Below, piece by piece: positions 45,069-51,386 of a stretch of DNA of 52,974 nt. A program made the position numbers and the translations under genes. This DNA is from a virus. Its lineage: Duplodnaviria; Caudoviricetes. The notes beneath the pieces were generated by a model. It made no database searches and was not told the origin of the DNA. It saw only the letters and a list, made by a program, of their open reading frames with translations. Location of the stretch: the IMG/VR virus record IMGVR_UViG_3300032073_000043, positions 1 to 52,974 of that record; one strand, written 5' to 3'. Positions within the stretch are counted from its first letter, which is position 1, and each line of letters starts with the position of its first letter.

Positions 45069-45322
45069 TCTACTAAAACTACATCTTGTATTTTTATAAC
45101 TTGCAATAGTTTATTTTTCCAGTGTATACCGTGTCCAGCGTGTTTATCATAGTATATAATGCTATTGTCATTAATACCCTCGACTAAGTTACCTTTTGTT
45201 ACAACTTTTGCTTTTATATACCTATTGTCACTGTCTGTTTTTTCTGTTAAAATTAAACCAGCAACTTTCTTAGGCTTTTCTTTGATCTTTTCTACTACTA
45301 TGTAATAATTAACTGCTTGCAT
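45065..45322 (-). CDS. groES: Co-chaperonin GroES
   Basis: YIVVE..., AGLILT mobile loop, AKVVTKG and IKIQDVV. Overlaps the groEL stop. Confidence 0.85.
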   Translation of the reverse strand: MQAVNYYIVVEKIKEKPKKVAGLILTEKTDSDNRYIKAKVVTKGNLVEGINDNSIIYYDKHAGHGIHWKNKLLQVIKIQDVVLVE

Positions 45323-46880
45323 TTGGTATTCTTATATTAGAGATTACACAATCTGCAGAAATTATAGTAGAAACAACACTAACTGCATTCTTTAGTGCTG
45401 TCTTTGTGACTAAGACTGGGTCTATTATGCCACTTTTTATCATATCAACCTCTTTTCCGGTTGTTACATCTATACCATACCCTATTTTTGTAGGAGTTTT
45501 TATTAAAACTATACCAGCATTGTCTAAAATAGTTTTAAAAGGTGCTAAAATAGCAGTTTTTAGTATTTTTTCGCCAGTATTATCTGGTTTTATTGAATTA
45601 GCAGCGTTTAATAGTGCTATTCCACCTCCAGAAACAATACCTTCTTGTAATGCAGCCTTAACTGCATAGATAGCATCTTCAACTCTATCCTTTTTTTCCT
45701 TTAATTCTACTTTAGAATCAGCACCTACGTTAATTATACCAACAGAACCGCTTAACATAGCTAATCTGTCTTGTAATCTTTTCTTAAAATAAGGTTTTTT
45801 CTCTTTTTTAATCTTATTTTTAACATCTTTTATCCTTTCTTCGAGGTCTACCGCTTTTAAACCAGTTGTAAGGACTGTAGTTCTGTTATCTGTGACAGAT
45901 TTTACTACTTCACCCAAACAATCTGGCTGGATCAGATCTAAATCGTCTCCAAGCTCTTCGTTCATAACTTGCGCTCCAGTTAAAAATGCTAAATCTTCTA
46001 TTGTATCTGCTTTACTAGGGCCAAAACCAGGTGGATCTATGATATTAACATTGATATTACCCTTAACTTTGTTCATTAGTAACGCTGATTTGACCTGTTG
46101 GTCAACCTCTGCTATAATAAGTAGAGGTTTTCTTTTCTTTATAACATATTCTAATACACTTTGTATCTTTCTTATGTTAGGTATAGGTGATGAAACTATT
46201 AAAACCGCTGGGTTTTCTAGTTCTGACACCATTTTATCTTTATTTGTAGCAAAGTGAGGTGATGTTAAGCTACTATCGAACTGTACACCCTCTACTATCT
46301 CTGTGTAGGTTTCATCGCTTTCGCTCTCCTCCATCAGCACTACACCGTCCTTACCTACTTTTTTGTAAGCTTCTGCAATAATTTGCCCCAAAGCTTTGTC
46401 ATTGTTGCAGCTAATTGCTGAAACGCTTGTAAGCTGATCGCCAGATACTGCTTTGCTGTGTTCTGAAAGGTATTCCACAACCTTTTTATATCCTGTTTCA
46501 ATGCCATGTTTTATATCTCTTATACTATCGTTAGACTTTACTTGTGAGTTGACCTCTTTTAATAGTGATTCAGCAAGGACGATAGCCGTAGTGGTACCGT
46601 CACCTGCTTCCTTCACTGTGTTTTTCGATGCTTCTTTAATAAGTGTTGCACCTATATTTTCTACAGGATCCATTAGTACTACTGAATCAGCTACAGTTAC
46701 ACCATCTTTAGTTATAACTGGTCTGCCTAATCCATCTTCGTATACTACGCACTTACCTGAGGCACCTAGAGTAGATTTAACAGCTTTCGCTAGTTTATCT
46801 ACACCATTCATAATTTTTGATTTAGCTTCATCACCAAAGTAAAGATCTTTGACAATTTCGCTAGGTTGATTAAATTCCAT
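45309..46880 (-). CDS. groEL: Chaperonin GroEL
   Basis: AVKSTLG, VITKDGVTVA, EAGDGTTTA, EKKDRVEDA and GIIDP motifs. Lacks the GGM tail. Confidence 0.97.
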   Translation of the reverse strand: MEFNQPSEIVKDLYFGDEAKSKIMNGVDKLAKAVKSTLGASGKCVVYEDGLGRPVITKDGVTVADSVVLMDPVENIGATLIKEASKNTVKEAGDGTTTAIVLAESLLKEVNSQVKSNDSIRDIKHGIETGYKKVVEYLSEHSKAVSGDQLTSVSAISCNNDKALGQIIAEAYKKVGKDGVVLMEESESDETYTEIVEGVQFDSSLTSPHFATNKDKMVSELENPAVLIVSSPIPNIRKIQSVLEYVIKKRKPLLIIAEVDQQVKSALLMNKVKGNINVNIIDPPGFGPSKADTIEDLAFLTGAQVMNEELGDDLDLIQPDCLGEVVKSVTDNRTTVLTTGLKAVDLEERIKDVKNKIKKEKKPYFKKRLQDRLAMLSGSVGIINVGADSKVELKEKKDRVEDAIYAVKAALQEGIVSGGGIALLNAANSIKPDNTGEKILKTAILAPFKTILDNAGIVLIKTPTKIGYGIDVTTGKEVDMIKSGIIDPVLVTKTALKNAVSVVSTIISADCVISNIRIPNASS

Positions 46881-48200: not shown

Positions 48201-48257
48201 CTTTAACTTCACTGTGAGTTCCACTTGTTTCTAACAGTATAAATTGCGAACAAGTAA

Positions 48258-48298
48258 AGACATAATGGTTAACGTGAGTTCGATTCTCACCATGTCTA
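48258..48298 (+). ncRNA. tRNA-like minihelix (acceptor-like stem plus T-arm only)
   Basis: AGACAT...GTGAG-TTCGATT-CTCAC-C-ATGTCT-A; no D or anticodon arm. Confidence 0.5.
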
Positions 48299-48346
48299 CT
48301 AACTAAGGTAACAGAGTGTTATCAGTAACTAATTAAATATAATAAT

Positions 48347-50111: not shown

Positions 50112-50321
50112 ATGAGTAAAACTAAAGAATTTGATATGTTAGCTGATAAAGCTACACATGAAGCAGTAGAAGAAATATACAGAATATGCGAGTGGACATT
50201 AACCGGTAGCGATGCTAAGTCATTACTAAGCTCTACACCAGATATAAACGAAGCTCATAGTTACTTGATGAAGCTCGTTATCGGTAAACTCGCTAATAAA
50301 TACTTAAATATATATGAGTGA
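50112..50321 (+). CDS. Early hypothetical protein
   Basis: 69 aa with a TAAAACT-ATG leader. Confidence 0.6.
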   Translation: MSKTKEFDMLADKATHEAVEEIYRICEWTLTGSDAKSLLSSTPDINEAHSYLMKLVIGKLANKYLNIYE

Positions 50322-50490
50322 TTCAGTAAAAAAATGGTTTGAGATGCAAGAAGAAAAAGAGCACAAAGACGTGCTATACACACATGCGCCAAACAGAAAA
50401 GCATACAGAATACTAATAGATTATGATATAAAAGATATTAGAGAAGCTGTAAAGCTATATGATAAAACAAGAAACCCGCTAGACGAGTAA
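50314..50490 (+). CDS. Small early protein (58 aa, not in ORF track)
   Basis: MSDSVKKWFEMQEEKEHK..., overlapping the previous stop. Confidence 0.6.
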   Translation: MSDSVKKWFEMQEEKEHKDVLYTHAPNRKAYRILIDYDIKDIREAVKLYDKTRNPLDE

Positions 50491-50575
50491 CTTAATTAGG
50501 TATGATTAAAGGCGTAATTCCTTAGCGGGATGTGAGAAACGGCTCGATGATTACACATAAGTGAATAGCTAGCAA

Positions 50576-50740
50576 TCGAGGTGGCGGCATACAGGTCACG
50601 TTAGTTGAAGGGTAAGAACAAACGGTTGGAACGGTTGAAAGAGTACCGGATGGCTCCGTGAAGTTTATAACTTCAACAAAACAGAAAGTGTGGATAAATG
50701 ACAATACTAGTTAACTACCTGTCCACAACTGGTGCCTCGA
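50576..50740 (+). ncRNA. Candidate structured RNA (~165 nt, nested stems)
   Basis: Nested pairings TCGAGG/CCTCGA, ACAGGT/ACCTGT and GTTGAAG/CTTCAAC in a GC-richer non-coding stretch. Confidence 0.5.
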
Positions 50741-50743
50741 AAT

Positions 50744-50829
50744 GGGAGTGATAAGGTAAGTGAGACAGTATCTTCGCCGACTATGGCAAGACAGTATCTC
50801 AAACGGCGGTTCGACTCCGCCCACTTCCA
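50744..50829 (+). ncRNA. tmRNA-like tRNA domain with Ala identity and no mRNA-like domain
   Basis: Acceptor GGGAGTG/CACTTCC with G3:U70 and discriminator A; unpaired D-loop; long irregular hairpin; T-arm GGCGG-TTCGACT-CCGCC. Confidence 0.7.
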
Positions 50830-50834
50830 CTAAC

Positions 50835-50922
50835 AGAGAGATGGCAGATATGCAGAGATATACTTGTCGACAAAACAACGGCGGATTTACGTAAGCGAAG
50901 TACTTCGTGGGCACATCTCTCT
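50835..50922 (+). ncRNA. Candidate structured RNA
   Basis: Closing 9-bp stem AGAGAGATG/CATCTCTCT and an internal CGAAGTACTTCG palindrome. Confidence 0.45.
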
Positions 50923-51016: not shown

Positions 51017-51089
51017 TGCGGTATAGAGCAGTGGTCAGCTCGCATGGCTCATAACCATGAGGTCGTTGGTTCGAATCCTTCTGCCGCAA
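51017..51089 (+). tRNA. tRNA-Met(CAT), partly initiator-like
   Basis: Acceptor TGCGGTA/TGCCGCA; D-stem GAGC/GCTC; anticodon arm CATGG-CTCATAA-CCATG; T-loop TTCGAAT with two U-U mismatches in the T-stem. CCA is not encoded. Confidence 0.9.
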
Positions 51090-51120
51090 CAAAACAAATA
51101 CGAATGCTAAACGATTATAT
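51089..51120 (+). promoter_or_regulatory. Early promoter-like motif, copy 5
   Basis: ACAAAACAAATACGA-ATGCTAAA-CGATTATAT. Confidence 0.75.
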
Positions 51121-51146: not shown

Positions 51147-51386
51147 ATGACAAAAATTAAAACCGTCTACGACAAACTATTGCCCGACGTTAAAACAAGT
51201 TTAAAAGCTAGTGCTAGAAAATACGATAGCGCTAAAAGACTAAAGTATACGCTTATGTCAAAAATGATGTGGTCGGAACTAAATGTCTATGAAGTTAGAG
51301 ATATATTAACCTACGGTGACTTAAACAGTTGGGAACTAGATTGCTACAGCTTTATGTACGGTGAAAAAATAATTGATAAATCATGA
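51147..51386 (+). CDS. Early hypothetical protein
   Basis: 79 aa behind motif copy 5. Confidence 0.65.
   Translation: MTKIKTVYDKLLPDVKTSLKASARKYDSAKRLKYTLMSKMMWSELNVYEVRDILTYGDLNSWELDCYSFMYGEKIIDKS

Follow-up and report, generated by a model that had tools for sequence, protein, structure and literature searches.

The 52,974-nt stretch of DNA analysed here (the window) is the complete record IMGVR_UViG_3300032073_000043 of the virus database IMG/VR. On its plus strand, at 50744-50829, it carries an 86-nt element that is very probably a functional relative of transfer-messenger RNA (tmRNA), reduced to the tRNA-like domain (TLD). About 100 contigs of uncultured marine phages have this mini tmRNA in conserved form, which makes it the representative of a new large family of an already known kind, the phage tmRNA without coding sequence (CDS). 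Comparison of the variants indicates that the element is under strong purifying selection that includes G3:U70, the identity pair for alanine. As mode of action we favour inhibition of the host tmRNA by competition; taken as a whole, the statement that the element is a phage CDS-less tmRNA and acts in this manner is offered tentatively and at slightly less than even confidence.

Read from its 5' end the element is GGGAGTG / ATAAGGTAAG / 41-nt hairpin / AAC / GGCGG-TTCGACT-CCGCC / CACTTCC / A. Sequence and fold assign these parts to the 5' strand of an acceptor stem (50744-50750), a 10-nt analogue of the D loop without D stem (ATAAGGTAAG, 50751-50760), a T arm (50805-50821) and the 3' strand of the acceptor stem (50822-50828). 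The hairpin at the position of tmRNA P2 (50761-50801) is defined by fold and covariation, the linker AAC (50802-50804) and the discriminator A73 (50829), which closes the 86 nt, by sequence. The seven acceptor pairs are G1-C72, G2-C71, G3:U70, A4-U69, G5-C68, U6-A67 and G7-C66, and the T loop is of the UUCGAnU type found in the TLD of tmRNA. The minimum free energy fold of 50744-50829 reproduces the predicted layout (-30.9 kcal/mol, z = -2.86, equalled by 1 of 200 shuffles) and gives the interior as one irregular hairpin with a loop of 6 nt. Neither sequence nor fold of this segment contains a D stem, an anticodon arm or an anticodon; the fold has no pseudoknots, and PK1-PK4 of tmRNA are not matched. 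The mRNA-like domain is missing too, since resume codon, tag frame and stop codon are all absent and the interior is occupied by the 41-nt hairpin. The layout of the original prediction (G3:U70, A73, no D stem, a 3-nt linker and a short hairpin) thus agrees with sequence and fold. At the place where CCA would be expected the trailer CTA follows (50830-50832), and because CCA is not encoded, maturation would need 3' trimming and CCA addition.

An RNA of this plan has a precedent. The listing in Hudson, Lau and Williams 2014 (PMC4131195) includes "Mycobacterium phage DS6A (TLD only)", and a passage of the same paper, citing Mao et al. 2009, states that a molecule similar to it, chargeable or not, strongly inhibits tmRNA, perhaps via titration of SmpB. 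According to passages of the 2025 tmRNA database paper (PMC11915505) expression of the DS6A form in E. coli inhibits the endogenous tmRNA, and CDS-less tmRNAs occur also in mitochondria and two plastids. We located the DS6A RNA (tmRNA Website tmID 11587) at JN698994.1 28478-28560 (83 nt, 43.2 bits), where the GenBank record leaves the space between gp33 and gp34 without annotation. Both RNAs are phage-encoded and arrange their parts in the same order: an acceptor stem of 7 bp that includes G3:U70, a GG-containing D-loop analogue, a single hairpin, a short linker and the T arm, with A73 as discriminator. Both are unannotated and are followed by CTA instead of CCA. Their sizes are close (83 nt matched in DS6A versus 86-89 nt here), and both score below the Rfam gathering threshold (43.2 and 35.7 bits). 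The two differ in that blastn detects no sequence similarity between them and that the base of the DS6A hairpin keeps the canonical ..TCGAC, whereas the window family has ..TAAG / ..AAC. Moreover, the DS6A form has been reported once, from an actinobacterial phage, in contrast with the large marine-phage family described here, which has exchangeable modules, tandem copies and an island of further RNAs around it.

With standard tmRNA (Rfam model RF00023) the element shares the acceptor stem with G3:U70, A73, T arm and T loop, and a D-loop analogue (A-U-n-n-G-G...) that has the consensus length of 10 nt. Its T arm and acceptor 3' strand together (25 nt) are identical to those of full tmRNAs in two IMG/VR contigs (L008 and L016 in our numbering of loci) and in two Bacteroidales genomes, and as in most Bacteroidia tmRNA genes CCA is not encoded. 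It deviates from the standard form by having a single 41-nt hairpin instead of pseudoknots, resume codon, tag frame and stop codon. Reduction to the TLD is shared with CDS-less organellar tmRNAs (jakobid and oomycete mitochondria, RF02544, and two plastid genes of about 65 bp), which are presumed to work with SmpB encoded elsewhere, as a passage of PMC11915505 puts it. Unlike these, the window element is viral and gives no match to RF02544, and variable hairpin modules are not reported for the organellar forms. A tRNA-Ala gene has the acceptor stem with G3:U70, A73, the T arm and similar RF00023 scores in common with the element, which differs from it in lacking D stem, anticodon stem-loop and anticodon.

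If extra flank is provided, RF00023 aligns 50744-50832 with its positions 1-374 and skips 301 interior positions (35.7 bits); both ends of the element are placed at posterior probability "*". A covariance model built on the family itself (R1) scores the element with 82.2 bits. At gathering thresholds Rfam finds only a tRNA-Met in the whole window, and ARAGORN, applied to the whole window, reports the same tRNA-Met (51017-51090) alone; neither calls the element a tRNA or a tmRNA, and ARAGORN predicts no tag. The mitochondrial model RF02544 gives no match in the window at E <= 10 (21 candidates scored). The alignment of both ends with RF00023, the plan and size shared with the TLD-only RNA of DS6A and the conservation described next all speak for the original identification as the TLD of a tmRNA without coding part.

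An exact scan of IMG/VR with the last 22 bases of the element retrieved 21 contigs, 18 of which have a matching 5' strand not more than 140 nt away; the same set includes L008 and L016 with full-length tmRNAs (77.2 and 62.2 bits) and one damaged second copy. With the first 17 bases 40 contigs were obtained: 34 carry the complete element, five are chance matches without T arm, and one (L037) has a diverged 3' half. The half left free in each scan varies at one position (A/T at position 11 and C/T in the T loop, respectively). The interior sequences, on the other hand, differ almost wholly among the relatives, and the length of the element ranges from 73 to 177 nt here and from 68 to 177 nt over all relatives. 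Nevertheless 4-8 contiguous base pairs join the interior ends in each of the 23 distinct close variants, with 16 different sequences for the helix, and shuffled interiors close likewise in 8.6% of trials. For this helix, which closes the hairpin, the pair count in the MAFFT alignment finds both partners changed in 5 of 5 pairs, with a covariation score reached by none of 500 shuffles and by none of the slid controls; an alignment fitted to the model has the same outcome. Conservation is not due to a coding sequence on either strand because lengths differ by non-multiples of three, and by the same length differences the 67-codon minus-strand frame at 50711-50914 was excluded as its cause.

The wider family was collected by a structure-based scan of the loci together with an exact scan using the 3' half of the second class (65 contigs). 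It comprises 86 distinct elements from IMG/VR phage contigs, which fall into four classes by acceptor and T stem. The window element belongs to the first (GGGAGTG/CACTTCC, T-stem 5' strand GGCGG, 25 distinct elements); the second is the largest (GGGCGTG/CACGTCC, GCAGG or GCGGG, 58 distinct elements), and the others have two members (GGACGTG/CACGTCC, GCAGG) and one member (GGGGGTG/CACCTCC, GAGGG). Between the classes acceptor pair 4:69 changes from A-U to C-G or G-C, and the T stem from GGCGG to GCAGG, GCGGG or GAGGG with its partner strand matching. The covariation that had been named as a check for related phages is present in acceptor stem, T stem and hairpin helix. For the second class, in which the search pattern fixed the 3' half only, a pairing 5' strand is found at 65 of 65 loci. 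G3 of the G3:U70 wobble is kept in 57 of its 58 distinct sequences, although A3 would pair more strongly, and A73 is present in all relatives. None of the 86 variants has a D arm or an anticodon arm, and in 12 loci examined no element is called by ARAGORN. Nearly invariant halves and missing cloverleaf arms do not look like the decayed ordinary tRNA that homologues had been considered to reveal.

The CTA trailer follows A73 in 23 of 23 distinct elements of the first class and at 60 of 65 loci of the second, where CCA is encoded once. In 32 Bacteroidia tmRNA genes the discriminator is always followed by C, with CCA encoded in three and CTA in four of them. CTA also stands behind the DS6A RNA (JN698994.1 28557-28560) and behind the full tmRNAs of the phages phi38:1 (NC_021796.1 near 26803) and Calle_3.

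A blastn search of the element against 50,697 GenBank phage records returned matches of T-arm size only (27-34% coverage, E >= 0.3), and R1 finds nothing at E <= 0.01 in MW202828.1, elemoE, phi13:2, phi38:1 and Calle_3. When CCA is appended to the exact 3' end, no match is found in 185,579 species genomes; when it is left off, 12 matches appear, two of which are full Bacteroidales tmRNAs, and no host was identified thereby. Another of the 12 lies on a 903-bp contig (L053) in a Planctomycetota metagenome-assembled genome; it is a mini tmRNA of the first class with the hairpin ends of L023, and the contig is probably a phage fragment binned with that genome. The literature searched contains no TLD-only tmRNA in flavobacterial or marine phages, whereby tables of tmRNA databases and phage annotation files could list further forms.

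The interiors of the 86 elements form 45 clusters, of which seven occur in more than one acceptor/T class and 38 in a single class. The irregular helix of the window element, GAGACAGTATCT...GACAGTATCTC, is found again in two further classes, where its apical part differs, and a module that the window has outside its mini tmRNA (about 50499-50554) occupies the hairpin position in two elements of the second class (L248 and L253). Interiors span from about 23 to 132 nt and are not shrunk to a minimum. Because clusters are common to several classes and to a neighbouring RNA, the hairpins behave as conserved, exchangeable modules.

The window is a linear record with an estimated completeness of 86% and about 33% G+C, encoding a large terminase, a portal protein, a tail fibre and a GroEL-like chaperonin. 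The latter (45309-46880, minus strand; PHROG 5725, E = 3e-141) has a relative in at least 563 IMG/VR stretches. Nearest to the terminase is that of the uncultured podovirus MW202828.1 (63.6% identity), followed by those of Flavobacterium, Cellulophaga, Tenacibaculum and Maribacter phages (87 records, all but the first with at most 60% identity). From these terminase neighbours the host is probably a marine member of Flavobacteriia, and sequencing runs that contain the stretch are labelled seawater or marine plankton. A tyrosine integrase (PF00589) is found neither in the window nor in five relatives rated 100% complete (65-70 kb), and phages carrying the element are probably lytic. The five complete relatives contain no SmpB homologue and no tmRNA above the cut-off; each has the mini form alone (35.3-36.6 bits). 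The window has no SmpB either, so that SmpB of the host would have to serve. Among cultured and named phages of the group, phi38:1 (NC_021796.1 26803-27164, minus strand, 87.6 bits) and Calle_3 (MT732434.1 42950-43311, plus strand, 86.6 bits) possess full-length tmRNAs of 362 nt, in both of which CTA follows and CCA is not encoded; one tmRNA gene in Calle is noted in a passage of Bartlau et al. (PMC8776804). No full-length tmRNA was found in MW202828.1, elemoE and phi13:2.

Contigs assembled from RNA libraries cover the element and the surrounding island, one of them bridging 50478-50843. Such contigs are weak evidence of expression, as DNA may be present and neither ends nor levels can be read from them. 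An 82-nt contig in X16 spans exactly 50744-50825. Summed contig depth over 50538-50843 exceeds that of the flanking open reading frames (ORFs) in two runs of one study, whereby conserved blocks recruit contigs of many strains.

The following course of events can be proposed. The element would be transcribed together with the neighbouring RNAs, cut by RNase P at G1 and trimmed after A73, whereupon a host enzyme would add CCA. The alanyl-tRNA synthetase of the host (AlaRS) could then charge it with alanine via G3:U70, and host SmpB followed by EF-Tu may bind it as they bind tmRNA. As resume codon and stop codon are absent it cannot complete trans-translation. By the precedent of DS6A it would instead compete with host tmRNA for SmpB and stalled ribosomes, and tagging and rescue in the host would be lowered or redirected during infection. 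A decoy for SmpB and EF-Tu or a tag-less rescue RNA, as the original prediction had it, is plausible by precedent, being the same idea that the literature offers for the DS6A form; the lack of SmpB and full tmRNA in the five complete relatives fits either version.

Several observations weigh against competition by a TLD-only tmRNA or against parts of this interpretation. In the recommended check with Infernal, tmRNA is the top-scoring Rfam model of its clan on the element stretch at E-value thresholds, but 35.7 bits lie below the gathering score of RF00023 (47 bits) and within the range reached by tRNA-Ala genes. RF00023 gives 31-40 bits to 77-nt loci in 121 Bacteroidia genomes, and all four such loci that were fetched (L185-L188) are ordinary tRNA-Ala genes with 33-40 bits. 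Because of these values the RF00023 score alone cannot separate the TLD of a tmRNA from tRNA-Ala; the missing D and anticodon arms together with the comparative data do separate them. The element also lacks the P2 base TTT(T/C)GAC...GGAC or a close form of it, which is present in 32 of 32 Bacteroidia tmRNAs. The canonical ..GAC / GGAC form is replaced in the window by ..TAAG / AAC, and because of this departure recognition by SmpB is not assured. RNAalifold finds acceptor and T arms in the MAFFT alignment and misses the hairpin helix, because eight rows with one extra C sit out of register. A3-U70 replaces the wobble in two distinct elements (L021 79-158 and L094 2708-2842), and RNA-library contigs bridging the predicted 5' end (50743/50744) exist. 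Among 80 contigs retrieved via the GroEL gene, 21 extend at least 6.5 kb on the relevant side, and only seven of these carry the element (the covariance model detected five, the structure scan the other two). Within the wider phage group the mini tmRNA is thus frequent without being present everywhere. Two further points concern the mechanism. If inhibition needs no charging, as the passage in PMC4131195 suggests, the strict conservation of G3:U70 in the sequences argues for a role that depends on alanine, and interior modules shared between classes appear superfluous for a pure sponge.

That G3:U70 is retained almost without exception suggests that charging is important, and productive rescue without a tag therefore stays a serious rival, even if we consider it unlikely. 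According to this explanation the alanine-charged RNA together with host SmpB takes over the nascent chain in stalled ribosomes and adds one or more alanines; the chain is then freed by a hydrolase or by drop-off, and the phage gains rescue capacity without the host's degradation tag. G3:U70 in 57 of 58 sequences and the universal A73 point to selection for alanylation, which an SmpB sponge may not need. A passage of PMC11915505 adds that CDS-less mitochondrial tmRNAs are conserved with SmpB and presumably assist where mRNAs are incomplete. That phi38:1 and Calle_3 have full tmRNAs means that supplying tmRNA function recurs in this phage group. Yet an RNA with neither template nor stop codon has no known route to release, and the sole experimental report on such an RNA, as given in passages of PMC4131195 and PMC11915505, is one of inhibition. 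A similarly low probability is assigned to the idea that the TLD is a scaffold, providing RNase P processing, trimming, CCA and stability for a hairpin module that is the working part, perhaps as a decoy or by offering a host or phage factor a place to bind. The seven clusters common to more than one class, the recurrence of the GAGACAGTATCT...GACAGTATCTC helix in two other classes, the module found outside the element in the window but in the hairpin position of L248 and L253, and interiors of about 23 to 132 nt that were not minimised are all expected from a scaffold with cargo. A generic tRNA scaffold, however, needs neither a tmRNA-type D-loop analogue nor G3:U70, both of which are conserved; 38 of the 45 clusters are restricted to a single class, and a target is known for none of the modules.

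An anti-defence function appears highly improbable and is suggested by analogy: the element might mimic the acceptor ends of tmRNA or tRNA and draw off those defence factors of the host by which such ends are bound or cut, candidates being systems with SmpB-like domains, immunity linked to RNase R, or acceptor-end nucleases. CoCoNuT types II and III-A are predicted to have SmpB-like domains that may bind tmRNA (passage in PMC11090510), a staphylococcal phage anti-CRISPR acts via t(m)RNA fragments that bind RNase R (passage in PMC11662646), and the phage of the window has a second, smaller acceptor/T minihelix at 48258-48298. Conservation of G3:U70 is left unexplained by such a decoy, for which analogy is the only argument. 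Least probable of all, with hardly any chance in our estimation, is that the element is not a functional tmRNA relative but a decayed tRNA-Ala, the relic of an attachment site taken from the 3' end of host ssrA, or a processing punctuation mark between RNAs. It is true that RF00023 scores tRNA-Ala genes as high as the element, that tmRNA 3' ends are common phage attachment sites (passage in PMC11590407), that the element sits between other RNAs in need of processing, and that a few copies look damaged (L014 with a deletion, both copies of L017 with defects, L037 with its diverged 3' half). But two halves that are nearly invariant over about 100 contigs, with an interior free to change, are the opposite of decay, and the 86 variants without D or anticodon arm as well as the 12 loci without ARAGORN call do not resemble tRNA genes. 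Punctuation would need neither G3:U70 nor the D-loop analogue. An attachment site copied from ssrA was rejected, as both acceptor strands are present and pairing and PF00589 has no match in the window or the five complete relatives.

CDS-less tmRNAs have so far been known from few organelles and one phage, and with the sequences presented here the curiosity of DS6A becomes a large natural family. Its natural variation can be read as a mutational map, in which G3:U70, A73, the D-loop analogue, a closed hairpin and CTA are kept and the content of the hairpin varies. With this map one can ask if RNAs of this type inhibit trans-translation, rescue ribosomes without tagging or act as carriers of cargo. 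Culturable Cellulophaga is the host of the relatives that possess full tmRNA (phi38:1 and Calle), and in this tractable and harmless group full and tag-less phage tmRNAs could be compared. The unexplained modular hairpins could make the family more than a known kind. We regard it as rather improbable, though worth stating, that the TLD is a portable chassis, that a limited set of conserved hairpin modules has moved between classes and a neighbouring RNA, and that the island is an RNA toolkit of the phage. An SmpB-type chassis chargeable with alanine might then bring these modules to SmpB, RNase R or the stalled ribosome, for instance, or stabilise them there, and the 41-nt minihelix and two unclassified RNAs described below might also be aimed at the host machinery for ribosome rescue and tRNA surveillance.

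The element lies on the plus strand among small ORFs, in a non-coding stretch of 656 nt between the ORFs 50314-50490 and 51147-51386; PHROGs gave no function for ten small ORFs around the island. The upstream-flank alignment defines a non-coding block past the stop of ORF 50314-50490 (50491-50577, plus strand), which consists of the hairpin module at about 50499-50554 and a conserved CACATAAGTGAATAGCTAGC. A 7-bp complementarity between 50483-50489 and 50862-50868 was dismissed as a pairing for want of covariation. Then follows a conserved pseudoknotted RNA, here called RNA-U (50578-50738, plus strand), which ends 5 nt before the mini tmRNA; 12 distinct variants were compared by eye, and Rfam has no match. 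Its helices are the closing GAGGTG/TGCCTC, ACAGGT/ACCTGT and GTGTGGA/TCCACAAC, to which a variable inserted hairpin is added. Compensatory changes in the three helices, again read by eye, include GAGACG/TGTCTC, ACTGGT/ACCGGT and GCGCGGA/TCCGCGAC. L074, L079 and L040 have a minimal form without insert, about 74 nt long, and RNA-U is absent beside the mini tmRNAs of L020, L026, L029 and L042. A frame of eight codons with a stop can be read in two variants. RNA-U as a detached tag template was rejected, since helix covariation explains the differences and RNA-U is missing beside several mini tmRNAs. A likeness of its GGCGGCAT..GGTC segment to HDV-like ribozymes, which has no Rfam support, was likewise set aside.

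Between mini tmRNA and tRNA-Met a second conserved structured RNA is located, RNA-D (50835-50922, plus strand, 88 nt), with 12 distinct variants and no Rfam match. Its closing helix AGAGAGATG/CATCTCTCT becomes AGAGGGGTG/CACCTCTCT in other variants. The tRNA-Met (CAU) at 51017-51090 (plus strand; ARAGORN, 62.9 bits with the Rfam tRNA model) starts exactly 5 nt past the mini tmRNA in six of 12 related loci and within about 100 nt in nine of 12.

Some minor observations can be added. Sub-threshold tmRNA matches of about 77 nt in genomes are usually tRNA-Ala. The full tmRNA of L016 (5516-5964, plus strand, 62.2 bits) is a long AT-rich form on a 68-kb IMG/VR contig; it agrees with the window element in every base of T arm and acceptor 3' strand, and ARAGORN predicts for it a tag of 25 residues, AMSKWNEVDETPVYSINRSQLAMAV*. 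Mini tmRNAs can stand in tandem, namely in L021 (79-158 and 162-257) and L017 (388-482 and 550-624, both with defects). In L021 a GGACGTG copy with A3-U70 and the canonical GAC...GGAC hairpin base directly precedes a copy of the first class. Finally, 2.4 kb upstream of the mini tmRNA there is the 41-nt acceptor/T-arm minihelix already mentioned (48258-48298, plus strand), which has an ATGGTT insert in place of a hairpin and reads AGACAT-A-ATGGTTAAC-GTGAG-TTCGATT-CTCAC-C-ATGTCT-A, followed by CTA. It has A3-U70 and a discriminator A, and around it lies a weak Rfam tmRNA match (48226-48301, 15.6 bits). In 14 distinct variants from related loci both of its stems are compensated, as in TGACAC/GTGTCA, TGAAGT/ACTTCA and AGTGG/CCACT.

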